Positions 20,859 to 60,102 of a stretch of DNA of 64,000 nt are shown here, piece by piece. This DNA comes from a virus (taxonomy: Duplodnaviria > Caudoviricetes). Under the pieces are notes generated by a model. The model ran no database searches. It saw nothing but the letters and a program-made list of their open reading frames with translations, and was not told the origin of the DNA. Location: IMG/VR virus record IMGVR_UViG_3300029288_000150, positions 11,220 to 75,219 of that record. One strand, written 5' to 3'. Every line of letters begins with the position of its first letter. Position 1 is the stretch's first letter. The translations under genes and the position numbers were made by a program.

Positions 20859-21509
20859 ATGACCGGGGCACGCGCTCCTGAGACCGGCCGCCGGGTGCTC
20901 GTCCTGGCGCCGCACACAGACGACGGGGAGTTGGGGGCCGGGGCGACGGTCGCCCGCCTCGTTGAGGAGGGGGGCCGCGTCTGTATCCTGGCCTTCTCGA
21001 CGGGCCACCCCAGCCGGGGGTCGACGCACGAGGAGGCCCTGGCGGCGGCGGCGGCGCTGGGCGTCGCCGAGCCCGGGGGGCGCGTCCACTTCTGCAACCT
21101 GGAGGCCCGCCGCTTTCCCGAGCGGCGCCAGGAGATCCTGGAGGCCATGATCTGGGCAAGGGGGGCCTGGGAGCCCGACCTGGTATTCTGCCCGTCCAGC
21201 TTCGACCGCCACCAGGACCACCAGGCCGTCCACGCCGAGGCGATCCGGGCATTCCCCCGGGTAACGCTCCTGGGCTATGAGCTGCCCTGGGGCTGCCGGG
21301 GCTTCCACGCCACCTGCCTGTGGCCCGTCGAGCGGGGCCACGTCGAGGCGAAACTCCGGGCGCTGGCCTGCTACCAGAGCCAGGCACGGTATGCCTACGT
21401 ACAGCCCGCGGCGATCTGGGGGCTGGCAACCGTGCGCGGCCTGGGCCTGGGGCTGGATGGCCAGGGCTACGCGGAAGGGTACGAGGTGCTGCAATGGGTG
21501 AGCAAGTAA
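20859..21509 (+). CDS. PIG-L/LmbE family N-deacetylase
   Basis: LVLAPHTDDGELGAGAT and HQDH motifs. Confidence 0.9.
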   Translation: MTGARAPETGRRVLVLAPHTDDGELGAGATVARLVEEGGRVCILAFSTGHPSRGSTHEEALAAAAALGVAEPGGRVHFCNLEARRFPERRQEILEAMIWARGAWEPDLVFCPSSFDRHQDHQAVHAEAIRAFPRVTLLGYELPWGCRGFHATCLWPVERGHVEAKLRALACYQSQARYAYVQPAAIWGLATVRGLGLGLDGQGYAEGYEVLQWVSK

Positions 21510-23041
21510 GAGTCGGCCTTATCGGCTGCGGGGCCTGGGGGAAAAACATCCTCCGCAACCTGCTAACCCTGCCCGGGGTGGATCTGGCCTGGGTGTGCGA
21601 TCCCAACCCGGACGGCAACGAGAGGGCGGCCGCCATGCTCCAGGCGGCGGCCGCCGATACCACGGTGTATATGTCCCCGCCGCCCCTGTGCGGGGTGGAC
21701 GCCGTGTGCATCGCTACCCCGCCCGCGACCCACTACGACCTGGCCCTGGCGGCGGTGCGGGCCGGGGCCCACGTCTTTGTCGAGAAGCCGCTGACCCTGC
21801 ACATGGACGCCGGGGAGCACCTGGCCTGGGAGGCCCAGGCGGCCGGGCGGGTGCTGATGACCGGCCACCTCCTGCGCTACCATCCGGCGTTCGTCAAGCT
21901 GCTGGCCATGGTCGACGCCGGGGAGTTGGGCCGGCTGGAGTACGTCTACTCCAACCGCCTGAACCTGGGGCGGGTGCGGCCCCGGGAGTCGGTCCTGTGG
22001 TCGTTCGCCCCGCACGACGTGTCGATGATCCTGGCGCTGGCCGGGGACCGGCTGCCCGCCCGCGTCCAGGCCCAGGGCGCCGCCTACCTGCAGGCCGGGG
22101 TGCCGGACGTGACCACGACGCTCATGGACTGGGGGCCCGACGATCTCCGGGCGCACATCTTTGTAAGCTGGCTCAACCCGCTCAAGGAGCAGCGCCTGGT
22201 CGTCGTCGGGGAGCGGGGCATGGTCGAGTTTCGGGACGATGGCCTGGCCCCCCGGCTCATCCACTGGCCCTACCGGGTGGAACGGGTTGGCGCCGGCCGG
22301 GATGCGCCGCGGCCCGTCGCCGGGCAGCCCGTCGCCCTGGACGTGCCCCACGAAGAGCCCCTGGCGGCGGAGCTGGCCCACTTCCTGGCCTGCTGCCGGG
22401 GGGAGGCCGAGCCCCTGACGGGGCCTGCGGAGGCGTTGCGGGTTTTGCGGGTTTTGGCCGCCGCCCAGGAGTCCCTGGAGGTGGGCTGCCCGGTGCGCCT
22501 CGGCGGGGAGCCCTGGCCAGCGCGGGGCCCGGCGCCCGACGCGCCCCGCGGCCAGGACGAGGAGGGCCCGGGGGCCGGCTGGTGGGCCCATCCCCTGGCC
22601 GACGTCGAGGCGGGGGCGGAGATCGGGGCCGGGACAAAAATCTGGCGCTGGACGCACGTCCAGGCCGGCGCCCGCATCGGCCGGGATTGCATGATCGCCC
22701 AGGGCTGCTACGTGGCCCCCGGGGCGGTTATCGGCGACGGCTGCCGCATCCAGAATGGGGTAAGCATCTTCCAGGGGGTGATCCTGGAGGCGGGGGTCTT
22801 TGTCGGCCCCCACGCCGTCTTTACCAACGTCCGCCGGCCGAAAGCGGGCGAGCGCGGCGACTTCGAGGAGACCCGCATCTGCACAGGGGCGGCCATCGGG
22901 GCCAATGCCACGGTACGCTGTGGTGTGACCATCGGTCAGGGGGCCATGGTGGGCGCCGGGGCCGTCGTGACCCGCGACGTGCCGCCGTGGGCCACCGTCG
23001 TGGGCAATCCGGCCCGCATCTGGGACATACAGGAGGAATAG
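21494..23041 (+). CDS. Gfo/Idh/MocA oxidoreductase fused to hexapeptide N-acetyltransferase (WlbA-WlbB / WbpB-WbpD-like)
   Basis: VGLIGCGAWG, VFVEKP, SFAPHD; C-terminal AHPLADVEAGAEIGAGTKIW...IQNGVSIFQGVILE...VFTN hexapeptide repeats. Confidence 0.85.
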   Translation: MGEQVRVGLIGCGAWGKNILRNLLTLPGVDLAWVCDPNPDGNERAAAMLQAAAADTTVYMSPPPLCGVDAVCIATPPATHYDLALAAVRAGAHVFVEKPLTLHMDAGEHLAWEAQAAGRVLMTGHLLRYHPAFVKLLAMVDAGELGRLEYVYSNRLNLGRVRPRESVLWSFAPHDVSMILALAGDRLPARVQAQGAAYLQAGVPDVTTTLMDWGPDDLRAHIFVSWLNPLKEQRLVVVGERGMVEFRDDGLAPRLIHWPYRVERVGAGRDAPRPVAGQPVALDVPHEEPLAAELAHFLACCRGEAEPLTGPAEALRVLRVLAAAQESLEVGCPVRLGGEPWPARGPAPDAPRGQDEEGPGAGWWAHPLADVEAGAEIGAGTKIWRWTHVQAGARIGRDCMIAQGCYVAPGAVIGDGCRIQNGVSIFQGVILEAGVFVGPHAVFTNVRRPKAGERGDFEETRICTGAAIGANATVRCGVTIGQGAMVGAGAVVTRDVPPWATVVGNPARIWDIQEE

Positions 23042-23042: not shown

Positions 23043-23849
23043 ATGGCCAAGGACAAGGAATACCAACTGACATCTACCGAACTCGCCCAGCGGGTGACAA
23101 CCCCGCTGCGCGGCGCCGCCGGCCTGAGCATCATCGGGCCCGACGGCAAGCCCTGGACGCTGGCGGAGCTATCCGCCTGGTGGGGGGCCGAGATCGAGGT
23201 CGTCGAGCCGGAGCCCCACGCCCAGGCGGCCTACATGGTCCGCGCCCACGAGTTGCGCGTGGCCGACGGCCCGGCGACGCAGATCGTCCGGGTCATCGAC
23301 CAACACGGCAACCCCATCGATCGGGCGGCCGTCTGTCGCTGGTGGACCGACGCGCCCCACCTGCCCGCGCTGCCCGCCGGCTGCTATGCGTCCTACCTCC
23401 GGCCCCAGGCCGTGGTGGGCGAGACCAACGCCGGCGGCGACGTGGGCTTCGGCATGGGCAAGGGCGATATGCCCGGCAGCTCGGGCGTCTGGGTGGCCAA
23501 CTGCCAGGCGCCGAGCGGGGGCGTGTTCGGCCTGGGGTGGAAGCCGTTCACCAACCACGCCGCCGTGGTCGTCACCTTCCAGGTCCTGCCCGTCGGCGGC
23601 GGGCCGGTCGTGCCCCCGCCCGAGCCGGTCGATACCGATCTGGAGGAGATCCGCCGCCGGGCCGAGACCGCCGTCCAGGTGCTGACCCTGGCCGAGGGGC
23701 TGGGCGGGGAGACGCGGGACGCGATCCAGGTCGCCCGCGCCCGCCTGGATGCCGCGGAGCAGCGGCTGGTCAACGCCCTGACCGGCGTCAAGTCGGCCCT
23801 GGAACTGGCCCAGGAGATCCAGATCCTGGCCGAGCCGGGGGAGGGGTAG
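23043..23849 (+). CDS. Hypothetical protein (beta-rich N-domain, helical C-tail)
   Basis: GGAGG RBS; inserted between sugar-pathway genes. Confidence 0.7.
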   Translation: MAKDKEYQLTSTELAQRVTTPLRGAAGLSIIGPDGKPWTLAELSAWWGAEIEVVEPEPHAQAAYMVRAHELRVADGPATQIVRVIDQHGNPIDRAAVCRWWTDAPHLPALPAGCYASYLRPQAVVGETNAGGDVGFGMGKGDMPGSSGVWVANCQAPSGGVFGLGWKPFTNHAAVVVTFQVLPVGGGPVVPPPEPVDTDLEEIRRRAETAVQVLTLAEGLGGETRDAIQVARARLDAAEQRLVNALTGVKSALELAQEIQILAEPGEG

Positions 23850-23852: not shown

Positions 23853-24998
23853 GTGGACGACATCCTGCCCGGAACCCCCATCCCGCCCCTGGACCTGGCG
23901 GCGCAATACCGCCAGTGCCGGGAGGCCGTCGACGCCGCCGCCCTGCGGGTGCTCGCCTCGGGGCGGTACGTCCTGGGCGACGAGGTCAAGGCCCTGGAGG
24001 CGGAGGTGGCCCACATCTGCGGCACGGCCGATGCCCTGGGGGTCGCCTCGGGCACCGACGCCCTGCTGCTGGCGCTGCTGGCGGCGGGCGTTGGGCCGGG
24101 GGACGAGGTCATCACCTCCGCCTTTTCCTTTATCGCCACGGCGGCGGCCATCTCGCGCACGGGCGCCCGGCCGGTCTTTGCCGACATCGAGCCCGAGACG
24201 TTCAACCTGGACCCGGCGGCCGTCGAGGCGGCGGTCACGCCCCGGACGCGGGCCATCGTGCCCGTCCACGTCTTCGGGCAAATGGCGGACGTGTCCTGGC
24301 TGGGCGACGTGGCCCGCGATCACGGCCTGCTCATCGTCGAGGATGCCTGCCAGGCCCTGGGGGCCACCTGGGGCGGGCGGGCGCCGGGGGCCACGAGCGC
24401 GGCGGCCTGTTTCTCGTTCTACCCCACCAAGAACCTGGGTGCGGCGGGGGACGGGGGGATGGTCGTCACCAACGACCCGGACCTGGCCGACCGGGTGGAC
24501 GTCCTCCGCCGCCAGGGCTGCCGGCAAAAGTACCACGCCGAGGCCCTGGGGTTCAATAGCCGGCTGGACGAGCTGCAGGCGGCCATCTTGCGGGCCAAGC
24601 TGCCCTGGCTGGCCGACTGGACCCTGCGGCGGCGGTGGCTGGCGGCCATCTACCGCCGGGGGCTCTCGGGCCTGCGGGCGGTCGAGGCCCCGGCGGAGAC
24701 CCTCGGGGCCGTCCACGTCTACCACCAATTCACCGTCCGGGTCACCGGGGAGGGCCGGCGCGACGGGCTCCTGGCCCACCTCCAGGCCCAGGGCATCGGG
24801 GCGGGGGTCTACTACCCGGAGCCCATCCACCGGCAGGCGCTGTACTCCCGAGAGTACGCCGGCGTCCACCTGCCCGAGACGGAGCGGGCCTGCCGGGAGG
24901 TGCTGTCCCTGCCCATGTATCCCGAGCTGGCCGAGCGCCAGGTGCGGGCCGTGTGCCGCGAGGTGCGGGCGTACCTGGAGGGGGCGGGCGATGGGTGA
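23853..24998 (+). CDS. DegT/DnrJ/EryC1/StrS PLP aminotransferase (WlbC/WbpE-like)
   Basis: VASGTDAL, VHVFGQ, IVEDACQA, FSFYPTKNLGAAGDGG, NSRLDELQA, LSLPMYP. Confidence 0.93.
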   Translation: MDDILPGTPIPPLDLAAQYRQCREAVDAAALRVLASGRYVLGDEVKALEAEVAHICGTADALGVASGTDALLLALLAAGVGPGDEVITSAFSFIATAAAISRTGARPVFADIEPETFNLDPAAVEAAVTPRTRAIVPVHVFGQMADVSWLGDVARDHGLLIVEDACQALGATWGGRAPGATSAAACFSFYPTKNLGAAGDGGMVVTNDPDLADRVDVLRRQGCRQKYHAEALGFNSRLDELQAAILRAKLPWLADWTLRRRWLAAIYRRGLSGLRAVEAPAETLGAVHVYHQFTVRVTGEGRRDGLLAHLQAQGIGAGVYYPEPIHRQALYSREYAGVHLPETERACREVLSLPMYPELAERQVRAVCREVRAYLEGAGDG

Positions 24999-25269
24999 GG
25001 AACTAGACCCGATCATGGCAGCCTTCCTAAAGTCTATGCAGAGGTCGAGCGACTATATCCTGGGCAGCCTGGGGATCAGGGTAGACCTGGGAGAGATTTC
25101 AGAGTACAAGCGTTATGCCCGGCTGCGCGACCGCCTGGGGCGCATGACTCGCTTTCGGCGCTGGTTATCCTGGCAGCTGCGGGATGAACTCCTTTACAGG
25201 GAAGCGATGGCCCATCAAGCGGTCTTTCATGCAATCCTGGAGAAGGGGCAGGAGGTACTCCATGCCTGA
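24991..25269 (+). CDS. Hypothetical protein
   Basis: Overlap-coupled 92 aa ORF. Confidence 0.55.
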   Translation: MGEELDPIMAAFLKSMQRSSDYILGSLGIRVDLGEISEYKRYARLRDRLGRMTRFRRWLSWQLRDELLYREAMAHQAVFHAILEKGQEVLHA

Positions 25270-26416
25270 CAAGTTAACCGTCGTCGTCACCGCCGCCGGC
25301 TGCCCGGGCGGCCCGTCCGTAGTGCGGGCCCTGCGAGAGGGCTTCCGCGTGGTCGCCACCGACCGCGACCCGGAAGCCTCGGGCCGGTTCTTTGCCGACG
25401 CCTTCCACGTCGTGCCCGGGGGCAACGAGCCCGGGTTCGTGGAGGCCCTCTTGGACGTGTGCGCCCGGGAGGGGGCTGCGGCCCTGGTGCCGGAGTCCAG
25501 CGGCGAGGTGCTGGCTGTGGGGGAGCGGCGGGCGGACTTTGAGGCCCAGGGCGTCAAGGCGCTGGTGAGCGAGCCCGGGGCCGTGGCCGTGGCACTGGAC
25601 AAGGCCAGGACCTACCAGGCCCTGGAGGGGGCGGGAGTGCCCCTGCCCCGGTGGAAACTCGTCGGGTCGGAGTACCCGCCGCGCTCTGATGACCTTTACC
25701 GCATCATGGAGGCCGCCCACGGGTTGGGTTTCCCCCGCGAGCCCGTGGTCCTGAAACGCCCGACGGGCAAGGGCGGGCGGGGCTTCTGGATTGTAGAGCC
25801 CTGGGGTTACTCCGGGCCGCGCATAGGCCAGGACTTGCGGACCTGGCCCAACGCCCAGCGGGTGAGAATGGACGAGGTGGCCGCCTGGGCCAACTATCGC
25901 CTGAGCCGGGACCAGGGCCTGGGGCGCTGGCTGGTCATGGAGTACCTGGAAAACGACCCCGCCCGCCCCGACACGGCCGACCTGTATGGGACGGCCTTTG
26001 GCTACACCAAGATCCGGGGGGACTGCCGGAACGGCGTCCACTTCCGGCACGAGGCCCGCTTCGATCCCGAGCTCTTGGGCATGGCCCGCCGGGCCGTGGA
26101 GCGCCTCGGCCTGGAGCACTTTGTCAACGTCCAATTCATGGGCGGCAAGCTCCTGGAGGTCAACCCCAGGATTAGCACCCAGATCCTGGCCCCGGGCTAC
26201 AACATGCCCCTGGCGGGGGTACAGCTCGCCCTGGGGCTGGTGGACCAGGTGACGGCCACCCTGCCCGACGGGACGCGGGCGGGGTACTATCTCGACCTGC
26301 GGAGCTACACGCCGGCCGGCCCAGTTGCGGGCGGTTGCGGCGGGTGCGGTTGTGGCGGCGGCGCGGCGTGCGACCGCCGGCATTGTGCCCCCGGCCCGGG
26401 CGGGGCGGGGGCCTGA
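25262..26416 (+). CDS. ATP-grasp domain protein
   Basis: VVTAAGCPG, LDKARTY, VLKRPTGKGGRGF, LVMEYL, VNVQF..LLEVNPRIS. Confidence 0.85.
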   Translation: MPDKLTVVVTAAGCPGGPSVVRALREGFRVVATDRDPEASGRFFADAFHVVPGGNEPGFVEALLDVCAREGAAALVPESSGEVLAVGERRADFEAQGVKALVSEPGAVAVALDKARTYQALEGAGVPLPRWKLVGSEYPPRSDDLYRIMEAAHGLGFPREPVVLKRPTGKGGRGFWIVEPWGYSGPRIGQDLRTWPNAQRVRMDEVAAWANYRLSRDQGLGRWLVMEYLENDPARPDTADLYGTAFGYTKIRGDCRNGVHFRHEARFDPELLGMARRAVERLGLEHFVNVQFMGGKLLEVNPRISTQILAPGYNMPLAGVQLALGLVDQVTATLPDGTRAGYYLDLRSYTPAGPVAGGCGGCGCGGGAACDRRHCAPGPGGAGA

Positions 26417-26431: not shown

Positions 26432-27067
26432 ATGGACGAGAGCGAGATGGACTTTGTCAAGGACGTGCGCCGGGCGCTGCGGGCCGACGAACCGCCCGCC
26501 CTGGACCTGCCCCTGGGGGAGGAGTACCCCGGCTGCGTGGTGGCCCCCGACTTCCGGCACGGGGCCAACTTCAAAATCGGGCGCTTCTGCGTTATCGAGG
26601 AGGGCTGTATCGTCGGGGATGACGTGACCATGGGGCATTACGTCCTGCTCAAAAAGGGAACCGTGATCGGGGATCGGGTCTTTGTCGATTCCTACGTAAA
26701 GAGCAGCGGCCAGAACCGGATCGGGGACGACGTCACGCTCCGGTTTAACGCCACGATCGCCCGCGAGGTGACCGTCGAGGACGGGGCCTTTATCAGCCCC
26801 AACGTCATGACCGTCTACTCGACCCACCAGGGCGAGAAGCGGGGCGGGACGGTGATCGGCGCCGGCTGCCACGTCGGCACCAACGCCGTGCTGGGGCCCA
26901 ACGTCCACCTGGCGCCGGGCACCGTGATCGGGGCGCTGGCCTACGTGAACAGGAATATCGACGAGCCGGGCATCTACGGCGGCATCCCCGCCCGCCTGCT
27001 CAAACCCGGCCTGCACGCCGCCACGCCCGAGGCCAGGGCGACCTACATCCAGGACTACAAGAAATGA
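26432..27067 (+). CDS. Hexapeptide-repeat (LbH) acyltransferase
   Basis: Repeated (I/V)GDD(V/C) hexapeptides, IGAGCHVGTNAVL, GIYGGIPARL. Confidence 0.85.
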   Translation: MDESEMDFVKDVRRALRADEPPALDLPLGEEYPGCVVAPDFRHGANFKIGRFCVIEEGCIVGDDVTMGHYVLLKKGTVIGDRVFVDSYVKSSGQNRIGDDVTLRFNATIAREVTVEDGAFISPNVMTVYSTHQGEKRGGTVIGAGCHVGTNAVLGPNVHLAPGTVIGALAYVNRNIDEPGIYGGIPARLLKPGLHAATPEARATYIQDYKK

Positions 27068-27702
27068 GCGAGCCGGTGGCCTGTGTCCTCGAGGCCCGCG
27101 CCGTCTTGCGCTGGGCCCTGCAGCAATACCCCGAGCCGGGCCGCGTGGCCATGACCTCGGCCTTCGGCCTGTCGGGCTGTGCCCTGATCCACCTGGTCTA
27201 CGGGGAGCTGGGCTGGGAGGTGCCGGTCCTGTTCGTGAACACCGGGCACCTGTTCCCCGAGACCCTGGAGACGCGGGACCGGCTCCGGGAGCGGTACGGG
27301 CTGGACCTGGTCGAAATCGAGGCCAGGGGAAAGATGCCCCCGCCCGGCCATGCCCAGTGCTGCCAGAAACGCAAGGTCGAGCCCATGCGGGCGCTCCTGG
27401 AAAAGGTGGCCCCCGCGGCGCTCCTGTCGGCCCGGGGGCGATTCCAGGCCGTCACCCGCCTTGACCTGCAACTCGTCGAGTGGGAGCGGCGGCCCCTGCG
27501 CGTCAACCCCCTGGCCAACTGGGCCCAGGGGGACGTCGAGGCTTACGTCCGGGACAACGGCGTGCCCTACAACCCCCTGTACGACGAGGGGTATTTTTCC
27601 ATCGGCTGCCGGCCCTGCACGCGGGCGGTCAAGGCCGGCGAGGACGTGCGGGCCGGGCGCTGGGACGGCCTGGGCAGGGTCGAGTGCGGGCTGTGGACGT
27701 GA
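27064..27702 (+). CDS. cysH: Adenylyl-/phosphoadenylyl-sulfate reductase
   Basis: TSAFG, FVNTGHLFPETL, CCQKRKVEP, VNPLANW, YNPLYDEGYFSIGCRPCT, RAGRW, ECGL; CC...CxxC Fe-S signature of APS reductases. Confidence 0.92.
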   Translation: MSEPVACVLEARAVLRWALQQYPEPGRVAMTSAFGLSGCALIHLVYGELGWEVPVLFVNTGHLFPETLETRDRLRERYGLDLVEIEARGKMPPPGHAQCCQKRKVEPMRALLEKVAPAALLSARGRFQAVTRLDLQLVEWERRPLRVNPLANWAQGDVEAYVRDNGVPYNPLYDEGYFSIGCRPCTRAVKAGEDVRAGRWDGLGRVECGLWT

Positions 27703-27705: not shown

Positions 27706-28455
27706 ATGCTCGCGCATGAGTGGGTCAAGGTCCACCCCGGGCTGGAGGGCACCTGGGACGTGGTCCTGCGGCTGGGGCCGGGTGACGGCCTGCTCCTGGC
27801 CGGGGGCCTGGCGGAGCGGGCCTGGGCCGTGGCGTTTGCCGAGAAGGTGCGCGGGGCGCTCCGGGCGTACGCCGGGGACGCCATCCGCGCCGGGGAGAGC
27901 GAGCCCGCCCGGCTCACGGACAACCTGTACCTGGCGGCCGGGCGGCGGGCCTTTCGGCCGAACAATGCCCGCCTGCGGGCCATGGCCGGCCTGTGCGCCG
28001 GGCCCCGGGTGCTGGACGTGGGCTGCGGGGCGGGGGATCTGCTCCTGATGCTCCGCGAGGGGGACCGGCACCTCCACCTGGCCGGCACGGAGATCAGCCG
28101 GGTCGCGGCGGGCATGGCGCTGGGCCGGGTGCGGGCGGTCCACGTCCACCTGACCGACGGCATCCCGCCCGGGCCGTGGAACACGATCGTCATGGGCCAG
28201 CTCCTGGAGCACCTGGCCGACGACGAGGCCATGGTCGACGCGGCGGCGGGGGAGCTGGTCCCCGGCGGCCGGCTGGTGGTCTCCGTGCCCAACGGCCCGG
28301 CCGTCCAGAGCCCGGACCACGTCCGGGAGTACACGCCCCGGACGCTGCGGGCCCTGTTGCGGCGCGTGGGCCGGGTGCGGCCCCGGCACTGGGGCGGGGA
28401 GGAAACCAGGCTCATCATGTGGGCGGAGAAGGACGGGCGGGCCGAGGGGGGATGA
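27706..28455 (+). CDS. Class I SAM-dependent methyltransferase
   Basis: VLDVGCGAG, QLLEHL, PGGRLVVSVPN. Confidence 0.85.
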   Translation: MLAHEWVKVHPGLEGTWDVVLRLGPGDGLLLAGGLAERAWAVAFAEKVRGALRAYAGDAIRAGESEPARLTDNLYLAAGRRAFRPNNARLRAMAGLCAGPRVLDVGCGAGDLLLMLREGDRHLHLAGTEISRVAAGMALGRVRAVHVHLTDGIPPGPWNTIVMGQLLEHLADDEAMVDAAAGELVPGGRLVVSVPNGPAVQSPDHVREYTPRTLRALLRRVGRVRPRHWGGEETRLIMWAEKDGRAEGG

Positions 28456-29195
28456 TGCGGGCAAAGCGCACGGGTGCGGAATGGGAGGAGGTTTGCCGGG
28501 CGGGCGTCTGGACCGGCTATCAGCCCGGCGGCAAGGCGGGCCGCCGCTACCTGTACCGGCGGGGGGTCGCCATCGTGCGCGACAGGCTCAAGCCGTGGGC
28601 GATCTGGCGGCCGGGCGACGCGGTGCTGGACCTGGGTTGCGGCAACGGGCAGGTGGCCATGGGCCTGCTGGACGAGGGCCTGGGGGGCTATTGGGGCCTC
28701 GACGTGTGCGCCGGGGCCATCGCGTTCTGCCGGGCGGCCTTTGCGCCGTGGCCCGAGTTCCGGTTCCGCCACCTGGACGTGCGGAATGCCCGTTATGCGC
28801 CGCAGGGTGCGATGGAGCCGGCGGCGATGCGCCTGCCCTTCGAGGCGGGCACCTTCGACGCGGCGCTGTGCAAGAGTTTGTTCAGCCACCTGGAGACCGA
28901 GGCCGTGGCCCGGCGATATGTCGGCGAGCTGGCGCGGGTGATCCGGCCGGGGGGCAGGCTCTACTCGACGTGGTTTGTATCACCGCCGAACGAGGTGACG
29001 GCGAGCCCGGCCCGCACGGTCTACCGCCGGGCGTTCGTGGAGGAGTTGCTCGCCGGGGCCGGCTTTCGCGCGATCGCCTCCGGGGGCGGGTACACCACGG
29101 GCAAGAACGACCAGTGGGCATTATTGGCAGAGAGGGCAGGGGCGGCGGAGCCTGGAGGGGAACGTGGGCTGGAAGTGGAACCAGACAGCGCATAG
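28452..29195 (+). CDS. Class I SAM-dependent methyltransferase
   Basis: VLDLGCGNG, YWGLDV, FDAALCKSLFSHL, RVIRPGG. Confidence 0.85.
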   Translation: MMRAKRTGAEWEEVCRAGVWTGYQPGGKAGRRYLYRRGVAIVRDRLKPWAIWRPGDAVLDLGCGNGQVAMGLLDEGLGGYWGLDVCAGAIAFCRAAFAPWPEFRFRHLDVRNARYAPQGAMEPAAMRLPFEAGTFDAALCKSLFSHLETEAVARRYVGELARVIRPGGRLYSTWFVSPPNEVTASPARTVYRRAFVEELLAGAGFRAIASGGGYTTGKNDQWALLAERAGAAEPGGERGLEVEPDSA

Positions 29196-30090: not shown

Positions 30091-30100
30091 GGACTTGTCA

Positions 30101-30913: not shown

Positions 30914-30946
30914 CCCCAATCCCTTTCAGCAATCCGTTGCTTTCGT

Positions 30947-31318: not shown

Positions 31319-31319
31319 G

Positions 31320-31628: not shown

Positions 31629-31665
31629 TTCTGAAACTCCCTTCTTGGAAATCGTTGCTTTACCG

Positions 31666-31919: not shown

Positions 31920-31935
31920 AGCAAACTTGCCAACC

Positions 31936-52923: not shown

Positions 52924-53912
52924 TGGCCGAGACTTCCTACCTGTGGGACAACCCCGGGACGGGCGACTCGCCCGCCGGGGGCTATGGCAATGCGCTCTTG
53001 TGCCGGGCCGTCTTTCGCATGCTCCTGGGCAGCGATGGGGACCGGGGCGTGCTGCACGGCTGGCTCGACGACCTGGAGGTCACCGACGGCGGGGGCCTGG
53101 ACGCTGCGGTGGGGGCCGGGGCGGCCCTGTGCTACGGGGCATGGCACGAGTCCGACGAGGCCGAGACCGTGGCCCTGCCGGACAATTCGACGGTCCACGT
53201 CGTCGTCCGGGCCGACTGGGCGGCCCAGACCGCCCGCCTGGCCCAGGTGGCGGCCCTGACCCAGAACCCGGGCGTGACCTACGACGTGCCCCTGGCCGAG
53301 GTGACGACGGCCGGCGGGGCCATCGCCCTGATCACCGACGAGCGGGACTATTGCGAGTATCCCACCGTCCTGGAGGCCAGCGCAGTCACGGCCGACAACA
53401 TCCAGACCGGCGCGGCGACTGTCGCCAAGATGATCGACCAGGCGCGGCACCTGTCCCGGGGCGCGGGCGAGTTTGTGGCCGACGCCACGAACCCGGCCAC
53501 CTGGGGCGGGGGCACGACGAGGGGCACCATCTGGCTCCTGGCGGACGCGGCGACCAATGCCGCCTGGTGTACGTTTCGTGTCCCGGCCGATATAAGCAGC
53601 GCCGCCATCGATTTTAACGTCTGGTTTGCCGGGGCCGCCCTGGACAATGGGGACGTGCTCTGGAGCTACAGCCTGTGGCAGGCGGCCGCCGGGGGCGTCC
53701 TGGCAAACACGGCCGGAACCATGACCACGACATTCACGGCCAGCGACCCGACCCAGCACGAGGCTGTCTGCGAGCTGCTGGCGTCGGTAGCCGCCGCGGC
53801 GGGCGACCTGGTCCACCTGCGGGTGGAGCGCCTGGGGGCGGACGGGGCGGACACCTGGACCCATAGCGTGATCCTGTGGGGGATCTCAATCGACTACACG
53901 GCGGATAGCTAG
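52923..53912 (+). CDS. Minor tail/baseplate protein, paralog A2
   Basis: SYLWD, DRGVLHGW..LEV, YDVPLA. Confidence 0.7.
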   Translation: MAETSYLWDNPGTGDSPAGGYGNALLCRAVFRMLLGSDGDRGVLHGWLDDLEVTDGGGLDAAVGAGAALCYGAWHESDEAETVALPDNSTVHVVVRADWAAQTARLAQVAALTQNPGVTYDVPLAEVTTAGGAIALITDERDYCEYPTVLEASAVTADNIQTGAATVAKMIDQARHLSRGAGEFVADATNPATWGGGTTRGTIWLLADAATNAAWCTFRVPADISSAAIDFNVWFAGAALDNGDVLWSYSLWQAAAGGVLANTAGTMTTTFTASDPTQHEAVCELLASVAAAAGDLVHLRVERLGADGADTWTHSVILWGISIDYTADS

Positions 53913-54935
53913 ATGGCACAACGATCACTGTTCTGGGACACCGAGGGCCTGGGGGATGGCGGGCCCTACTCACAGGCCAACCTGCACGACCAATTTCTGC
54001 GCTGCATCCTGGGGGCCACGGGAAACCGGGGCGTGGTGCCGGGCTGGCGGGACGGGCTCCTGGTTTCGGGCACGAGCTCGCCCCTGTCCGTGGCCGCGGG
54101 CGGGGCGGCCGTCTATGGCCTGCTGCACGACTCGGACGCGGCAGTCTCGGTATCGCTCCCCACCCCCTCGGCGGGCCACTCGCGCTATGACCGCGTTGTG
54201 CTCCGCCGATCCTGGGCCGAGCAGACGATCCGCGTTGCCCGCGTGGCAGGCGTGGCGGGGGTTATCCCGGTCGTGCCGGCCCTGACGCAAAGCCCCGGGG
54301 CGATTTACGAGGTGCCCCTGGCCACCGCCCTGGTGACCGATGCCGGGACCGTGACCCTGACCGACGCCCGGGAGTTCCTGGCCTTTCCCACCGCCTGGCC
54401 GGCCGGCATCGTCGGCCTGGGCGATTACGCCGAGGGCGCCGTGGGGGCGGCCGAAATCCCCAACCGCACCCGCTACGAGCTCAAGGGCGGCGGCTCTATC
54501 CGCCCCGACGCGACCAACCCCTGCACCTGGACGGCGGGGGGCTCCTACGATTACTGGGAGTTTGCCGACGCGGCGACCAACGCCGGCTGGGTGACGTTCA
54601 TGGCCCCGGTGGGCCTGGTGGGGTCCGTCAATTTCTACCTATGGAGCGTGCCCGACGTCAACGGCGCCGGGGGCGGGGCGGAGAACGCCCAGTGGGATTA
54701 CTCGGCCTTTTACGGCGCGGGGGACGTGGCCCCCACCAACGCAACGGGCACGGTCAACGCCGACCAGCAGGCCCGGGTTAACACCCGGGTCTACCGCGAC
54801 CAACTCATCGCCGCCCTGCCGGCAACCGAGGGCCAGCCCATCGCCCTGCAGGTGAGCCGGGACGGGGCGGCCGACTCCTATAATAGCGCCATGCGCCTGC
54901 TGGGCGTCGAGATGGAATGGACGGCGGACTCGTGA
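53913..54935 (+). CDS. Minor tail/baseplate protein, paralog A3
   Basis: MAQRSLFWD, NRGVVPGW, YEVPLA. Confidence 0.7.
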   Translation: MAQRSLFWDTEGLGDGGPYSQANLHDQFLRCILGATGNRGVVPGWRDGLLVSGTSSPLSVAAGGAAVYGLLHDSDAAVSVSLPTPSAGHSRYDRVVLRRSWAEQTIRVARVAGVAGVIPVVPALTQSPGAIYEVPLATALVTDAGTVTLTDAREFLAFPTAWPAGIVGLGDYAEGAVGAAEIPNRTRYELKGGGSIRPDATNPCTWTAGGSYDYWEFADAATNAGWVTFMAPVGLVGSVNFYLWSVPDVNGAGGGAENAQWDYSAFYGAGDVAPTNATGTVNADQQARVNTRVYRDQLIAALPATEGQPIALQVSRDGAADSYNSAMRLLGVEMEWTADS

Positions 54936-56386
54936 CGGACCTGACGGTTATCATCCCGGCCCGGAACGAGACGCACCTCCAGCGCACGATCGAGAGCGTG
55001 CTCGCCGCCAGCGAGGCCGACACCGAGATCGTGGCCGTCTGCGACGGCTACTGGCCCGACCCGCCCATCCAGGACCACCCCCGGGTCAACATCATCCACC
55101 ACTCCGAGGCCCGCGGCCAGCGGCAGTCCATCAACGAGGCGGCCCGCATCGCCCGGGGCCGGTTCATTATGAAGCTGGACGCCCATTGCGCCGTGGGGCC
55201 GGGCTTTGACCGCATCCTCATCGAGGACTGGCGGCCGGGCTGGACCCTGGTCCCCCGGATGTATAACCTGGACGCGGCGACCTGGGAGCCCAAGCTGCAC
55301 AAGAAAACAGACTACATGTACGCCGGCTGGAACGAGCGGGGCGAGCTGCGGGCCATGTACTACACCGGCCGGGAGTGGAAACGGCAGCACGCCAGGGCCG
55401 CCGAGATAGACGAGACCATGTGCTGCATGGGGCCGGGCTGGTTCATCGCCGCCGATGACTTCTGGCGAACGGGCGGGTGCGACGAGGGGCACGGAAGCTG
55501 GGGCCAGCAGGGCGTCGAGGTCAGCTTCAAGGCGTGGCTCTCGGGCGGGGCGCTCATGGTGGACAAACGGACCTGGTTCGCCCACTGGTTCCGGGCCAAA
55601 GACGGGGGCTTCCCGTACCCCATCAGCCAGCGGAGCATCGACCGGGCGCGGGCGTACTCGAAAGACTTGTGGACGGGCGACGGCTGGCCGGGGGCCACGC
55701 GCAAGCTGCAATGGCTGGTTGACCGGTTTCAGCCGCCAGGATGGGAGGGCAGATTGGCAGGGCAGGGAGACAGGGAGAAAAACGCGGCGTTGAGCGCCGC
55801 CCTTTACGAGCACATCCACCGCAAAGGCCACGAGCCCCACTGGCGCGGGGTGCGGGTCATCAAACAGCCGGGCGACCTGATTCTCTACCAGGAGGTCATC
55901 TGGCAGAACCGGCCCCGGTGGATCGTCGAGGCCGGGACCAAGTTCGGCGGGTCGGCCCTTTTCTTGCAGGACATGCTCGACCTTGCAGGCGAGGGCGGGC
56001 GGGTCGTGACCATCGACGTCGACGCCCGGGTGGCGGAGCCCGATCCGCGCATCACCTACCTGGCCGGCTCGAGCATCGACCCGGAGATCGTCGCCCGGGT
56101 CAAGGAGATGACCGCCGGGGAGCCGGTCATGGTCGTGCTCGACTCCAACCACGCCCGCCGGCACGTCAAATGGGAGCTGCACCACTACGCCCCCCTGGTG
56201 ACGCCCGGGCAGTACCTGGTGATCGAGGACTGCTACAGCCGCGGGACCGTGCCCTTCGGGCCCCTGGAGGCCCGGGACTGGTTCCTGGCCAGGACGCAGG
56301 AGGGCCGGCTCTTCGAGCAGACGAACCTGGAGCGCAAGTTCCTGGTAGGCGTCTGCAACGGCGGGTGGCTACGGAGGAAAGCGTGA
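54932..56386 (+). CDS. GT2 glycosyltransferase fused to CmcI-family O-methyltransferase
   Basis: VIIPARNE, VCDG, KLDAH; C-half WRGVRVIKQPGDL..YQEVIW..RPRWIVEAGTKFGGSAL, VVLDSNH, YAPLVTPGQYLVIED. Confidence 0.85.
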   Translation: MTDLTVIIPARNETHLQRTIESVLAASEADTEIVAVCDGYWPDPPIQDHPRVNIIHHSEARGQRQSINEAARIARGRFIMKLDAHCAVGPGFDRILIEDWRPGWTLVPRMYNLDAATWEPKLHKKTDYMYAGWNERGELRAMYYTGREWKRQHARAAEIDETMCCMGPGWFIAADDFWRTGGCDEGHGSWGQQGVEVSFKAWLSGGALMVDKRTWFAHWFRAKDGGFPYPISQRSIDRARAYSKDLWTGDGWPGATRKLQWLVDRFQPPGWEGRLAGQGDREKNAALSAALYEHIHRKGHEPHWRGVRVIKQPGDLILYQEVIWQNRPRWIVEAGTKFGGSALFLQDMLDLAGEGGRVVTIDVDARVAEPDPRITYLAGSSIDPEIVARVKEMTAGEPVMVVLDSNHARRHVKWELHHYAPLVTPGQYLVIEDCYSRGTVPFGPLEARDWFLARTQEGRLFEQTNLERKFLVGVCNGGWLRRKA

Positions 56387-56958
56387 CGGCCGTCTTTGTC
56401 CACGTCCCGAAAACGGGCGGGGTGAGCATCCAGCAGGCGCTCGGCCTGGAGCAGCACCGCAACCGCCGGGCCCTGCGGCGGGGGGCAGAGTACGCCGGCC
56501 TGGTGACGTTCGGCCACGAGCTGCCCGCCCGCCTGGTCCGGGCCGGCTACCTGGACCCGACGGGGGTCTTCTTTTTCGCCTTCTGCCGGAACCCCTACGA
56601 CCGGGCGGTCTCCCTGTGGGCCCACTGGCGCCGCGAGGGCGGCGGCCTGGGCTTCCCGGACTGGTGCCGGCTCCTGCCCGCCATGGGCTGGCGCCTCCGC
56701 GCCCCCCAGGCCCGCTGGACGGACGCCATAGACCTGGGGTTCCTGGGAAGGTTTGAGACCCTGGCGGCCGACTTTGATCGGCTGTGCGACGCCCTGGGGG
56801 TAGAGCGGCGGCCCCTGCCACTGCTGAACGCCAGCCCCCACCGGCCATGGCGGGAGCATTACGATGAGGAAACGGCGGCCATCGTCCGGGCGCAATACGC
56901 CCGGGACTTTGAGCGGTTCGGCTACGATGAAAACGATTATCTACCTGACGGACAATAG
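56383..56958 (+). CDS. Sulfotransferase (Sulfotransfer_2-like)
   Basis: FVHVPKTGGVS (5'-PSB), RNPYDRAVSLW (3'-PB), FLGRFETLAADF, LPLLNAS. Confidence 0.88.
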   Translation: MTAVFVHVPKTGGVSIQQALGLEQHRNRRALRRGAEYAGLVTFGHELPARLVRAGYLDPTGVFFFAFCRNPYDRAVSLWAHWRREGGGLGFPDWCRLLPAMGWRLRAPQARWTDAIDLGFLGRFETLAADFDRLCDALGVERRPLPLLNASPHRPWREHYDEETAAIVRAQYARDFERFGYDENDYLPDGQ

Positions 56959-57667
56959 CCTGGACGGGCGGATCGCGGCCCTGTGCCGGCGCAAGCTCCT
57001 GGAGGTGGCGGAGGGCCGGCCCATCGTGTCCGTGTCCCAGCGGCCCGTCGACCTGGGGCGAAACGTCTGCCTGGGGGAGATCGGGCGCTCGTGGCTCTCG
57101 CTCTACCGGCAGCTCGCCGCCGGGTGCGAGGCGGCGGAGACGGATTGGGTCATGGTGGCCGAGCACGACTGCCTCTACACCCCGGAGCACCTGGCCTACC
57201 AGCCGGCCGATCCGGGCGTCTTCTGGTACAACGACAACAGATGGCTTGTCCAGCAGGGCGGCAACCACCCGGAGTTGGACGGCATGTACTCCTGGTGGCC
57301 AGGGTCGCTGGCCCTGTCGCAGCTCGTTTGCCGGCGGGACCTGCTCCTGGCGAGCGTCCGGGAGCGACTGGAGATCCTGGCGGGCGGGGGCAGCCCGCGC
57401 CTGTTCGGCAAGGCGGAGCCGGGCGTCGTGCCGCCCCGGGCCATTCAGCAGGCCCGCAGGTGGGCCGCCTCGGGCCGCCCGGTTTGGCTGCGAAAGTATC
57501 TTGAGGACTATTTGACCCGCTACGAGCATCGGACGTTCAAGACCCGGCTGCCCAACCTGGACATCAGGCACGGGACCAACTGGACGGGGCCGAAGAGGGG
57601 GGCCAGGCGGCGCTACGAGCTGCCCTACTGGGGGCGGTGGGAAACCGTCTGGAGCGAGGGGAGCTGA
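56927..57667 (+). CDS. GT-A-fold glycosyltransferase-like protein
   Basis: IIYLTDN, IVSVSQ, WVMVAEHDCLY (DxD-like). Confidence 0.55.
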   Translation: MKTIIYLTDNSLDGRIAALCRRKLLEVAEGRPIVSVSQRPVDLGRNVCLGEIGRSWLSLYRQLAAGCEAAETDWVMVAEHDCLYTPEHLAYQPADPGVFWYNDNRWLVQQGGNHPELDGMYSWWPGSLALSQLVCRRDLLLASVRERLEILAGGGSPRLFGKAEPGVVPPRAIQQARRWAASGRPVWLRKYLEDYLTRYEHRTFKTRLPNLDIRHGTNWTGPKRGARRRYELPYWGRWETVWSEGS

Positions 57668-60102
57668 TGGCCTGGGATCCAACGCAAGCCACGCCAGACG
57701 GCGGGATAAGCGCCGAACACTGGTATCGGGCCGACCAGGGCACCTGGCAGGACGCCGGGATCACCGTCGCCGACGACGATGGCGAGGTCGTGGGCCGCTG
57801 GGAGGACCTGACCGCCAACGCCGATCACGTCAACCAGGCAACGGCGGACAACAAGCCAACGCTCCAGACCGGCGAGCTGAACGGCCATTCCGTCCTGCGG
57901 TGCGATGGGACAAACGACTTTTTGCAGGGCGCGTTCACCAATGGCGGGGCGCTGGCGCAGCCGTTCACCATCCTCCTGGTGGCAAAGTCCTCTGACTACG
58001 GCGCAACGCGGTGCATCATCAACAGCGATGACGCCACCAACGAGATGGCGGTATTTCAGCACCTCGTATCAAACAGGTGGGGGATCTGGGCCGGGGGGTT
58101 CCTGACCGGCACGTCTGCGCCGGATACCAACTGGCACGTTTGGACGATCAGGTTCGGCGGCGCGTCGTCCGCTTTTTGGCTGGGCGGAGTCAACGAGGCG
58201 ACGGGCGACGGCGGGACGCAAAACGCCGATGGCCTGTCGGTGGGCAGCAACAGCACGGGCAGCGGAGAATATTGGTTCGGCGACATTGCCGAGATCATCA
58301 TCTTTGACGCCGACCTGTCGGACTATGACAAGGACATCGTCGGCCAGTACCTGGCCGACCGCTACGGGCTATCGTACACCGACATCGGCGGCAGCTCGCC
58401 CAGCCCCAGCCCATCGGCCACGCCGAGCGCCAGCCCCTCGGAGGGCACACCCTCGAGCTCGCCCTCGGCCAGCCCCTCGGAGGGCACGCCCTCAAGCAGC
58501 CCAAGCGAAGGGACGCCCAGCGGTTCGCCCTCGAGTTCGCCGAGCGAGGGCACGCCCTCAAGCAGCCCAAGCGAAGGGACGCCCAGCGCCAGCCCGAGCG
58601 AGGGCACACCTTCAAGCTCGCCGTCCGAAGGGACGCCCAGCGCCTCGCCGTCGGAAGGGACGCCGTCCGGAAGCCCCTCGGCCAGCCCCAGCGAGGGCAC
58701 GCCCTCAAGCTCGCCCTCCGCCAGCCCCTCGGCCAGCCCGAGCGCCAGCCCCTCGGCCTCGCCGTCGGAAGGGACGCCCAGCGCCAGCCCCAGCGAGGGC
58801 ACCCCGTCGGCCAGCCCGAGCGCCTCCCCGTCCGAGGGCACGCCCTCGAGCTCGCCCTCGGCGTCGCCCAGCGCCTCCCCGTCGGCCTCCCCGTCGGCCA
58901 GCCCGTCGGCCAGCCCGTCGCCGGCCGCCGTGAGCACGTTCGCCGATTACGAGCTGTGGCTGACCGGCTGGGACGCGGCCCCCCTCAAGACCCTCTGGGG
59001 CCCGGGGCTTGTGAGTTTTGAATGGAGCCACGCCCTCAACCGCCCGTCGGTCTACCGCCTGATCCTGGTCGCCGAGGCCGTGACCCGGGCCGACTTCCGG
59101 CTGCACTACGGCGTCCGGCTGATGCGGAACCCGACCGGCGAGGTCGGCGGCTGGATGCGCGAATACGACGGCCTGCACCTGGACATCGACGAGTGGCTGC
59201 CTGCGGGCGACGTCGACGAGCACTATTGGTCCAGCATGGGGCAATCGCCCGACTGGCTCCTGACCCAGCCCCTCCTGCAGCCCATGGCGTCGGCCAACCC
59301 CGACTGGATGCGGTATGACCTGTGGTGGGACCACGGCCCGGCGGACGACGTGGTCAAGAAAATGGCGGCCGAGTCGATGGGCGGCGGGGCGGAGGCGGAT
59401 CGGCAGTTCTCCTATTTCGCCATCCAGGGCTACGCCGGGGCCGGCGCCTGGGGGTGCTACGAGGGTCGATACATCCGGCTCCTGGACGCCATGGTCGCCA
59501 CCGTTGGCGAGGACGGCTCCCGGGGGCTGTGTGATTTTCGCGTGGTGCCTGCCGCAGGCGGCTACGAGCTCCAGACGTTCGCCCCGTTCTACGGCACCGA
59601 CCGCCGGCGGGGCAATCCGACAGGAAACAAGCCGACGATCTTTAGCCTGGAGAACGGCAACGTCCTGAACCCCCGCCGCCAGGTGTTGCGCCACGCCGAG
59701 GTGACGGTCGCCATCGGCGGCTGGGCCGGGGGTGGGGCGGAGCAGGACATATACCAGGAGGTCAACGCCGCGGCCCTGGCCGAGTCGCCCTTCAACCGCC
59801 GCGAGGCGTTTTATGACCTGCGGGACGTGACCCAGCCCGACCAGATCGCGGGCATCCTGCAGCAGAAGCTCGTCGAGGACGGGGCCCGGGAGATCGTGAC
59901 CTTCGAGCCGCTACAGACGCCGGGCTGCCTGTACGGCCGGGACTGGGGCCTGGGGGACCTGTGCACGCTCGATCTGTGGGGGGAGTCCTACGACGTGCGG
60001 ATCACGGGCGTGACCGGCAAAATCTGGGGCCCGGACTCCGGCGAGGACGAGGTCATCGCCGGGCAGGCGGAATCATGGACGCGGGCAGACCTGGTATCCT
60101 GA
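57667..60102 (+). CDS. LamG-like domain + Ser/Pro-rich linker + ReqiPepy6 Gp37-like (Tal/baseplate hub) protein
   Basis: HWYRADQG...GDIAEIIIFDADLS (LamG-like); C-terminal IFSLENGNV, NRREAFYDLRD, YGRDWGLGD. Confidence 0.75.
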   Translation: MAWDPTQATPDGGISAEHWYRADQGTWQDAGITVADDDGEVVGRWEDLTANADHVNQATADNKPTLQTGELNGHSVLRCDGTNDFLQGAFTNGGALAQPFTILLVAKSSDYGATRCIINSDDATNEMAVFQHLVSNRWGIWAGGFLTGTSAPDTNWHVWTIRFGGASSAFWLGGVNEATGDGGTQNADGLSVGSNSTGSGEYWFGDIAEIIIFDADLSDYDKDIVGQYLADRYGLSYTDIGGSSPSPSPSATPSASPSEGTPSSSPSASPSEGTPSSSPSEGTPSGSPSSSPSEGTPSSSPSEGTPSASPSEGTPSSSPSEGTPSASPSEGTPSGSPSASPSEGTPSSSPSASPSASPSASPSASPSEGTPSASPSEGTPSASPSASPSEGTPSSSPSASPSASPSASPSASPSASPSPAAVSTFADYELWLTGWDAAPLKTLWGPGLVSFEWSHALNRPSVYRLILVAEAVTRADFRLHYGVRLMRNPTGEVGGWMREYDGLHLDIDEWLPAGDVDEHYWSSMGQSPDWLLTQPLLQPMASANPDWMRYDLWWDHGPADDVVKKMAAESMGGGAEADRQFSYFAIQGYAGAGAWGCYEGRYIRLLDAMVATVGEDGSRGLCDFRVVPAAGGYELQTFAPFYGTDRRRGNPTGNKPTIFSLENGNVLNPRRQVLRHAEVTVAIGGWAGGGAEQDIYQEVNAAALAESPFNRREAFYDLRDVTQPDQIAGILQQKLVEDGAREIVTFEPLQTPGCLYGRDWGLGDLCTLDLWGESYDVRITGVTGKIWGPDSGEDEVIAGQAESWTRADLVS
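58393..58923 (+). repeat. Coding low-complexity repeat (SPSEGTP x12 and SPSA runs)
   Basis: About 177 aa almost only S/P/A/E/G/T; synonymous codons vary between units. Confidence 0.95.

Follow-up and report, generated by a model that had tools for sequence, protein, structure and literature searches.

Sugar-modifying genes in the head and tail operons of an uncultured tailed phage suggest a system for glycosylating its own virion

The phage considered here is uncultured and is represented by the IMG/VR record IMGVR_UViG_3300029288_000150, which is 75,219 bp long and is rated complete by CheckV. The window analysed is a stretch of 64,000 nucleotides of this record (bases 11220-75219), and the subject is a candidate system for glycosylating the phage's own virion proteins, the genes of which are found in three places: a donor-sugar block between the putative portal gene and a minor head gene, a double glycosyltransferase gene beside the major capsid gene, and a cassette of three genes among those of the tail tip. 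The guanine plus cytosine (GC) content of the phage is ~70%, and genes were called by third-position GC (GC3). Genes are on the plus strand throughout 15900-61880, except in two low-GC insertions (30050-33450 and the HNH gene at 46184-47224), and those described below are on the plus strand unless another strand is given.

A preliminary description of this DNA had placed eight enzyme genes between portal and minor head gene, and profile hidden Markov models (HMMs; Pfam, NCBIfam) support each of them. The block opens with a PIG-L family de-N-acetylase (20859-21509; Pfam PF02585, E 1e-17), which has HxDD and HxxH zinc motifs and is separated from the upstream open reading frame (ORF) by 1 nt. 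Its stop is overlapped by the ATG at 21494 of a gene (21494-23041) for a WbpB/WbpD-like fusion of a GFO/IDH/MocA sugar 3-dehydrogenase-like domain with a left-handed beta-helix (LbH) N-acetyltransferase (Pfam GFO_IDH_MocA and Hexapep). The best NCBIfam match of the GFO domain is UDP-N-acetylglucosamine (UDP-GlcNAc) 3-dehydrogenase, at 115 bits against a cut-off of 450, and that of the LbH domain is NeuD/PglB/VioB, below cut-off. The idea that this is a novel fusion enzyme was rejected, as it has >7000 fused bacterial homologues at 45-52% identity, many of them named UDP-2-acetamido-3-amino-2,3-dideoxy-glucuronate N-acetyltransferase (WbpD-type) by JGI. A pattern scan of other IMG/VR contigs did not find the fusion, and one 5.9-kb contig seems to carry both a 59% homologue of it and a 47% homologue of the gene that follows. 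The latter (orf23043, 23043-23849) lies inside the block and encodes an unknown protein of 268 residues with a C-terminal coiled coil, for which there was no Pfam, PHROG or NCBIfam match; it has seven homologues besides itself, all unannotated, and in two loci (L029 and L032) these lie downstream of the capsid gene.

Next comes a DegT/DnrJ/EryC1 sugar aminotransferase dependent on pyridoxal phosphate (23853-24998; Pfam PF01041, E 4e-122), which is WbpE/WlbC-like and has homologues at 53% and 46% identity in two related loci (L045 and L052, respectively). Its best NCBIfam equivalogs are the 4-aminotransferases PseC and ArnB, all below cut-off. It is followed by an ATP-grasp ligase with a PylC-like N-terminal domain (25184-26416; Pfam PylC-like_N, ATPgrasp_Ter and ATP-grasp_3), a second LbH (hexapeptide) acyltransferase (26432-27067; Pfam Hexapep, E 2e-22), a CysH-type reductase of adenosine 5'-phosphosulfate or its 3'-phospho form, (P)APS (27064-27702), and two class I S-adenosylmethionine-dependent methyltransferases. 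The first methyltransferase (27706-28455) matches Pfam Methyltransf_23, Methyltransf_12 and Methyltransf_11. The frame of the second (28452-29195; NCBIfam MTase_DVU1556, E 3e-13, below cut-off) was set by GC3, by which the ORF at 28481-29227 is in the wrong frame and was rejected. The GC content of the block matches that of the phage.

The preliminary description had read the fusion and the aminotransferase as a WlbA/WlbC/WlbB route to a 2,3-diacetamido uronic acid. The GFO, DegT and LbH domains are indeed encoded, and none has an equivalog-level HMM match. No match to UDPG_MGDP_dh_N, sought for UDP-GlcNAc 6-dehydrogenase (WbpA), was found in the whole 75-kb genome, where positive controls matched. 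Because no WbpA-type enzyme is encoded, a uronic acid is only one possible product: the pathway may equally well begin with UDP-GlcNAc, and the host could supply the uronate, UDP-GlcNAcA. The CysH gene was considered as a supplier of 3'-phosphoadenosine 5'-phosphosulfate (PAPS) and rejected, as its equivalog score (NCBIfam NF002537, 184 bits against a cut-off of 154) and motifs (CC...CxxC for the iron-sulfur cluster and a C-terminal catalytic-Cys ECGLW) are those of a true reductase. Such an enzyme consumes activated sulfate and therefore cannot feed a sulfotransferase; no APS kinase is found in the phage genome. The conserved place of CysH in L045 suggests some link to the block, in a role that the model proposed below does not explain.

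The second site, which the preliminary description had placed directly after the capsid gene, lies 76 nt past that gene and encodes a soluble double glycosyltransferase of family 2 (GT2) with a C-terminal helix-hairpin-helix (HhH) domain (36572-38686; Pfam Glycos_transf_2 twice, HHH_5). In the genome as a whole, three GT2 domains exceed the Pfam cut-off, and there is one further putative transferase, of a phage-only family. Acidic motifs are invariant in both GT2 domains of this protein, which also has a conserved PMxCCGG/GPxTGxxYxFG module. Relatives differ in the small helical domain at its end, which is HhH here and E3-binding-like or other in them, and the HhH was for this reason rejected as a conserved DNA-binding feature. 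Linkage to the capsid gene was counted in related loci whose sequence runs on for at least 1.5 kb past that gene, a GT2 homologue being sought within 6.5 kb: 18 of 19 have a double-GT2 homologue after the capsid gene, 12 of them within 300 nt. The reverse search, starting from the GT2, finds the capsid family just upstream in 24/25 IMG/VR loci. In four of these 25 loci (L184, L191, L192 and L197) the two genes are separated by a homologue of the second methyltransferase (40-49%). The linkage holds over contigs of 42-70% GC and over capsid identities of 39-62%. Judged by this conservation of neighbours, the double GT2 belongs to the core of the phage family's head module, and its persistence beside the capsid gene across so wide a range of GC points to an acceptor that is intrinsic to the phage.

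The capsid gene itself (35188-36495) belongs to an unannotated family with at least 395 homologues; among the 120 listed, none has a Pfam family or an informative name, and some homologues are at 70-77% identity. A sequence profile search of the PDB gave no match. An AlphaFold2 model from an alignment of only 8 sequences was useless (predicted local distance difference test, pLDDT, 38) and was replaced by one from 60 sequences, with a pLDDT of 80 and a predicted template modelling (TM) score of 0.81. Foldseek found 279 matches to this model in the PDB at E<=1e-3, the top ones all being phage capsids or encapsulins, and the best structural matches are PhiTE, A-1(L), SU10 and HK97 (E about 4e-9, TM up to 0.65). 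The gene therefore encodes a major capsid protein of the HK97 fold. Its C-terminus is a conserved flexible tail predicted with low confidence (SPDP..TSFFPETSF), in which there is no Ser/Thr run. The family is rich in cysteine, with about a dozen invariant or near-invariant residues, including those of an N-terminal GCCGL and of TCWSVC; together with a Cys-rich neighbour (41569-42663), these make cross-linking of the shell by disulfide or metal possible. One capsid homologue (L006:10001-11284; G003, IMGVR_UViG_3300005077_000018) has in-frame TAG at codons 28 and 38, which may reflect recoding or read-through.

The third site is the tail cassette. Its first gene encodes a GT2 fused to a CmcI/rhamnosyl O-methyltransferase (54917-56386; Pfam RMNT_CmcI, E 3e-40, and Glycos_transf_2, E 2e-14), and its second a small PAPS-type sulfotransferase (56383-56958; Pfam Sulfotransfer_2, 27.5 bits against a cut-off of 22) with the PAPS-binding motifs PKTGG and RNPYDRAVS, the gene having a GTGA overlap with a GGAGGA ribosome-binding site. 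The third is orf56864, a phage-specific putative glycosyltransferase (56927-57667; M22 is the likely start in an ORF that begins at 56864). Pfam bears out the first two members of this trio as they had been described; the third, which had been called GT-A-like, has no Pfam or PDB sequence match. It has conserved IIYxTxN and ExD motifs, and its look-alikes by protein language model are viral clusters automatically named glycosyltransferase (score 0.99), so that its identity as a transferase is a lead and not a confirmation. Immediately after it, and starting at 57637 inside this last gene of the cassette, is the gene for a minor tail protein (57637-60102) made up of a LamG domain, a Ser/Pro/Thr repeat and a Gp37-like part (Pfam Sipho_Gp37; PHROG minor tail and virion structural families). 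Residues 253-428 (nt 58393-58920) of this protein are a tract of 176 residues of SPSEGTP/SPSA repeats, reaching 80% S/T/P in a 40-residue window, which is unique among the proteins of the window. The tract is internal, and the DNA repeats beneath it are imperfect.

The cassette and such Ser-Pro-Ser (SPS) tracts are found together well beyond this phage. A scan of IMG/VR with the orf56864 family yielded 68 viral loci of 33-64% GC, and in 67 of them a homologue of the GT2(-CmcI) protein lies beside the family member. A same-strand protein with a long SPSxSPSx tract is present in 43/65 non-duplicate loci, in 27 of which it is no more than 100 nt from the cassette. As a baseline, loci of the phage family fetched without reference to the cassette have an SPS ORF in 4/27 cases (Fisher p about 1e-7); two of these four carry the cassette (G002 and G003) and two are antisense artefacts, which leaves about 0/25. 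Among the complete genomes, cassette and SPS protein are both present in G000, G002 and G003, and neither is present in G001 or G004. The SPS-repeat proteins of other loci are partly virion proteins, namely LamG-plus-repeat proteins and one with a Prophage_tail domain.

At most junctions the enzyme genes overlap by 1-32 nt or are 0-15 nt apart, in agreement with the start/stop coupling described earlier, and no strong terminator was found inside the sugar block. No membrane segment is predicted in any enzyme or transferase, including every GT2 protein. Among the ORFs of the window there was no Pfam match to the Wzx, Wzy or GtrA families, and no ligase and no GtrC-like or large polytopic protein. 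The earlier statement that flippase, polymerase and seroconversion genes are lacking stands for these families, with one caveat. A small protein of unknown function with hydrophobic segments (orf38683, 38683-39027), without a GtrA match in Pfam, is encoded with a 4-nt overlap of the double-GT2 stop; as it has homologues after the GT2 in two other loci (L029 and L030), a claim that nothing here is membrane-linked has to be qualified. DUF1360 is matched by three ORFs in the cargo of relatives, which is described next.

The gap between portal and minor head gene is a variable slot. In one locus (L028) the minor head gene directly follows the portal gene, with no cargo between them, while the four complete relatives (G001-G004) have 9-15 kb of cargo there. 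The cargo of G001 includes two Methyltransf_24 proteins, one FkbM methyltransferase and a Sulfotransfer_1 protein (E 3e-24); that of G002 and G003 includes several GT2s and homologues of orf56864; and that of G004 includes a GT2, an NAD epimerase/dehydratase and a methyltransferase, alongside a DNA methylase and homing endonucleases. When 83 ORFs from the head-module cargo of relatives were tallied by Pfam, 24 were GT2, at least 7 of GT1 type, 2 Sulfotransfer_3 and several sugar-type methyltransferases. Donor-sugar enzymes are not peculiar to the present phage; at this hot spot its relatives carry other enzymes that modify sugars. DegT and the rest of the amino-sugar block are absent from all four complete relatives. 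The block is kept in place, in part, in L045, where DegT (53%), ATP-grasp (53%), LbH (66%) and CysH (59%) are followed by the minor head gene in the same order, the neighbouring head genes being 46-52% identical compared with 53-66% for these four. In L052, a GT1 and an epimerase/dehydratase lie right after the minor head gene, with a DegT nearby. A recent acquisition of a host lipopolysaccharide operon was rejected as the origin of the block: the phage-like GC, the synteny kept in L045 and the identity of only 45-52% to bacterial homologues of the fusion together mark it as an old phage-borne accessory.

The genes around these three sites are those of a tailed phage. The packaging and head operon opens with TerL (15900-18368; Pfam Terminase_6N and Terminase_6C), which is split by a LAGLIDADG-type intein, with LAGLIDADG_3 and Hom_end (Pfam) placed between its ATPase and nuclease domains. 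The putative portal gene (18379-20085; 568 residues) begins 10 nt past TerL and is kept in relatives at 27-51% identity; it had no Pfam, PHROG or PDB sequence-profile match, and its assignment, like that of the tail tube, is positional. In a distant relative (L010:1583-6349), the gene after the portal encodes a protein of 1589 residues with a Phage_Mu_F domain and a NUDIX hydrolase domain. The candidate minor head protein (29164-29802), which has a Zn-ribbon-like C-terminus and 80 metagenome homologues, matches phrog_24776 (E 2e-40), a family of unknown function. Between it and the scaffold gene is a minus-strand gene island (30050-33450) recognised in the GC profile (52-61%), with an rve-like integrase-core protein (32033-33361; weak rve_3 match) and its own perfect consensus promoter on the minus strand (31918-31890); it is probably an insertion, mobile or moron, outside the glycan system. 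Directly before the scaffold gene, at 33419-33559, is a perfect consensus sigma-70 promoter (TTGACA-17-TATAAT, extended -10 with TG). No more than 80 nt after it comes a terminator-like hairpin with a 14-bp stem and a T run, and the two are possibly a late promoter with an antiterminated terminator resembling lambda PR'/tR'. The scaffold gene (33563-35149), possibly for a protease-scaffold, is assigned by position and composition (an acidic Pro/Glu repeat and a coiled coil) and is kept upstream of the capsid gene in all relatives.

Downstream of the double GT2 are a LamG-domain protein of 61% GC (39634-41505; Pfam Laminin_G_3), which may be an accessory virion or lectin-like protein and is also found after the GT2 in L047, L110 and L186, and the conserved Cys-rich head/neck protein mentioned above (41569-42663), which follows the GT2 in nearly all relatives. 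The small 'MCCG' protein next to it (42664-42918) is a weakly supported paralogue of the C-terminal module of the double GT2 (38018-38686; BLASTP E 0.003), with phmmer matches to the GT2 homologues of L004, L006 and L034 (E 2e-5 to 4e-4), and the two may share a docking module. A candidate major tail protein with C-terminal BNR-like repeats (43469-44929) is proposed from its place before chaperone-like ORFs and the tape measure gene, and is kept in relatives. The tape measure protein (47263-50868; PHROG tape measure families) is followed by the distal tail protein Dit (50870-51781; Pfam SPP1_Dit, PHROG minor tail/Dit families) and by three paralogous virion structural proteins (51784-52923, 52923-53912 and 53913-54935; PHROG virion structural, tail and lectin families). 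These tandem paralogues have a common N-terminus (MAQRSxFWD/MAETSYLWD) and diverge at their C-termini, and are possibly alternative receptor-binding proteins. With Pfam and PHROG support for the tape measure, Dit, the structural paralogues and the Gp37-like protein, the enzymes of the cassette are placed among tail-tip genes.

The phage is temperate, as is shown by a tyrosine integrase on the minus strand (61890-62936; Pfam Phage_integrase, E 8e-26). The INPHARED phage collection, searched at both DNA and protein level, gave no match and so yielded no cultured relatives. Capsid homologues are found on contigs of metagenome-assembled genomes of Ardenticatenia, Caldilineae and Anaerolineae and of one Gemmatimonadota bin, and the hosts are probably Chloroflexota. 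The complete relatives, with capsids 52-57% identical to that of the window phage, have GC contents of 42-51% compared with its 70%, a very wide spread for one phage family. Full-text literature searches returned no account of this phage family, of the pairing of cassette and repeat, or of sulfated phage glycans.

What these genes do together is best read, and probably correctly, as glycosylation by the phage of its own virion proteins in the host cytoplasm. Chance does not account for the arrangement, as dozens of related loci show the same linkages. The preliminary description had proposed a virion glycan rather than host O-antigen, and this is partly supported by soluble enzymes in late structural operons, by the linkage of capsid gene and GT2, and by the SPS association. 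From the genes we infer the acceptors, the identity of the sugar, the order of the steps and the benefit to the phage, as follows. Late in infection, soluble enzymes would act in the cytoplasm on the phage's own particle proteins and give them a tailored glycan. The 3-dehydrogenase domain, DegT and the fused LbH domain would convert a host UDP-N-acetylhexosamine to a UDP-2,3-diacetamido-2,3-dideoxy-hexose, or to its uronate form if the host supplies UDP-GlcNAcA. PIG-L, the ATP-grasp ligase and the second LbH protein would then swap or add an N-acyl or aminoacyl group, and the two methyltransferases of the block would tailor the product. In the capsid arm, the double GT2 would most likely glycosylate the capsid protein, or a protein associated with the head, ahead of assembly or while it proceeds. 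In the tail arm, the mobile three-gene cassette would most likely build short methylated and sulfated O-glycans on serines of the SPS linker, with O-methylation by the CmcI domain. What the phage gains is likely to be more stable particles, adhesion, or concealment from binding by host or environment.

Several observations weigh against this account. A membrane-linked step is hinted at by the small hydrophobic protein that comes after the capsid GT2 in this phage and in relatives, and the GT2 domains match PHROGs labelled GtrB-like. The amino-sugar pathway is an accessory, given the four complete relatives that do without it. As an enzyme that destroys (P)APS, CysH is at odds with a sulfation pathway. 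No obvious tag rich in Ser/Thr is seen in the capsid protein, Ser/Pro repeats may be nothing more than flexible linkers, and the SPS baseline is small and drawn from a single phage family. Some of these points are shared by a different view of the genes, in which the modified sugar is placed on a lipid-linked glycan of the host (S-layer, sheath or wall polysaccharide) by way of host flippases and ligases, whether to exclude superinfecting phages from the lysogen or to keep progeny from adsorbing again to debris. Remodelling of this kind would suit a temperate phage, a pathway type that is typical of O-antigen and S-layer glycan loci, and a fusion enzyme with thousands of chromosomal homologues, as well as the GtrB-like labels and the recurrent hydrophobic protein coupled to the capsid GT2. 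We nevertheless consider it unlikely, as no transferase has the membrane anchor of GtrB and neither a GtrA match in Pfam nor Wzx, Wzy, a ligase or a GtrC-like protein accompanies them. The genes are, moreover, translationally coupled within late structural operons, and not beside the integrase or under a promoter of their own; the capsid-GT2 linkage persists across phage contigs with GC contents of 42-70%; and SPS-repeat proteins that the phages themselves encode go together with the tail cassette.

That the genes form no single system at all, being auxiliary metabolic genes or morons gathered in a permissive slot next to a repeat that is a mere linker, is quite unlikely. It would account for the homing endonucleases and DNA methylase in the slot of G004, for a CysH that is chemically out of place in the pathway, and for the absence of amino-sugar genes from the four complete relatives; it sits poorly with a cargo dominated by glycan enzymes in relatives, with four block genes in the same order in L045, with a cassette that abuts SPS-repeat proteins in 27/65 loci, and with a double GT2 that is a core head-module gene. 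Hypermodification of DNA appears very unlikely. Here the transferases would glycosylate modified bases as a defence against restriction, with the HhH domain as the part that binds DNA and the sugar block as the source of an unusual donor. The HHH_5 match at the C-terminus of the double GT2 would fit, and phage enzymes of GT-A fold do glycosylate 5-hydroxymethylcytosine, in clusters that are sometimes near structural genes (bioRxiv 10.1101/2023.12.21.572611). The HhH tail is, however, not conserved in relatives, and the genes are in head and tail operons and not in the replication module. In G000-G004 there was no Thymidylat_synt or Tet_JBP match, the latter a weak negative as the Tet_JBP search had no positive control, and no TGT family was found by Pfam in any of the five genomes. 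This explanation also leaves the SPS association unaccounted for.

Extended from one phage to its relatives, the virion glycosylation reading becomes a tentative proposal, for which we would claim somewhat less than an even chance. The tailed phages of a large and so far unannotated family, with hosts that are probably Chloroflexota, would build a glycan coat on their own particles by means of a glycosyltransferase encoded at a fixed place beside the capsid gene and a hypervariable 'serotype-like' slot of glycan genes between portal and head genes; the glycan of the present member would be methylated and sulfated and would contain a 2,3-diamino sugar made by its own nucleotide-sugar pathway; and the GT2(-CmcI) protein with the phage-only transferase would be a portable 'mucin-maker' for Ser-Pro-Ser linkers in many unrelated phages. 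If this is true, bacteriophages would gain their first sulfated protein glycan and their first multi-step donor-sugar pathway devoted to virion glycosylation; sulfation and a self-made diamino sugar would join the phage repertoire, and the trait would extend to another bacterial phylum and to a family of hundreds of environmental members. Phages would then diversify the chemistry of their coats through a swappable gene slot, as bacteria diversify their O-antigens. The cassette and the Ser-Pro-Ser repeat would be a compact pair of enzymes and acceptor, which could be tested in E. coli and may be of use in protein glycoengineering. More broadly, the question concerns the ways in which phage particles in the environment resist being bound, degraded or recognised.

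The proposed system has parts in common with several known ones. Gtr seroconversion by temperate phages uses a GtrA flippase, a GtrB GT2 with C-terminal membrane helices, and GtrC, a serotype-specific membrane transferase. The window phage is likewise temperate and has GT2-family transferases with a GtrB-like PHROG label; it differs in that its GT2 proteins have no membrane anchor, in having no GtrA match and no GtrC, and in the placement of the genes in late structural operons. In bacteria, WbpB, WbpE and WbpD (WlbA, WlbC and WlbB) produce UDP-2,3-diacetamido-2,3-dideoxy-glucuronate, and the GnnA/GnnB route works on UDP-GlcNAc. As in the former, a GFO-family enzyme (a putative 3-dehydrogenase), a DegT-family aminotransferase (putatively acting at position 3) and an LbH N-acetyltransferase are encoded together in the window phage, which differs in having no WbpA and no equivalog-level HMM match, in adding PIG-L, ATP-grasp, a second LbH and two methyltransferases, and in setting them in a phage head operon and not an O-antigen locus. 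The serine-rich repeat glycoproteins of Gram-positive bacteria, such as GspB and Fap1, are made with GT4-type GtfA/GtfB and accessory Sec export. Soluble cytoplasmic transferases encoded beside the substrate gene O-glycosylate serine-rich repeats in that system, as is proposed here, whereas the enzymes of the window phage are of GT2 type and of a phage-only family, and the substrate would be a virion protein.

Among viruses, the giant chloroviruses and Megavirinae pair their own rare-sugar pathways with glycosylation of capsid or fibril (PMC4691112, PMC9614988, PMC10117803). The likeness is that the virus encodes rare amino-sugar pathways of bacterial type along with transferases, and that the sets of sugars vary by clade. 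These are, however, eukaryotic viruses with genomes of 300 kb to >1 Mb, compared with a 75-kb tailed phage, and the enzymes and capsid are unrelated.

To our knowledge, mycobacteriophages are the only phages whose own enzymes have been shown experimentally to glycosylate the virion, and these are the closest counterpart. In Che8, Rita and their relatives, phage glycosyltransferases modify capsid and tail-tube subunits (Freeman et al. 2023, Cell Host Microbe 31:1216, as described in PMC11256854, PMC12619734 and PMC10877033). The present system would likewise rest on cytoplasmic glycosyltransferases that the phage encodes and that act on its own structural proteins, in a host phylum that is probably Chloroflexota. 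In the F1 phage Maravista, a close relative of Che8, the transferases are near the 3' end of the genome (PMC11256854), whereas here they are inside head and tail operons, with one of them a core gene fixed beside the capsid gene. The proposed tail acceptor differs too, being an internal Ser-Pro-Ser linker and not a C-terminal tag. To the transferases, the window phage adds a multi-step nucleotide-sugar pathway, a sulfotransferase and several methyltransferases.

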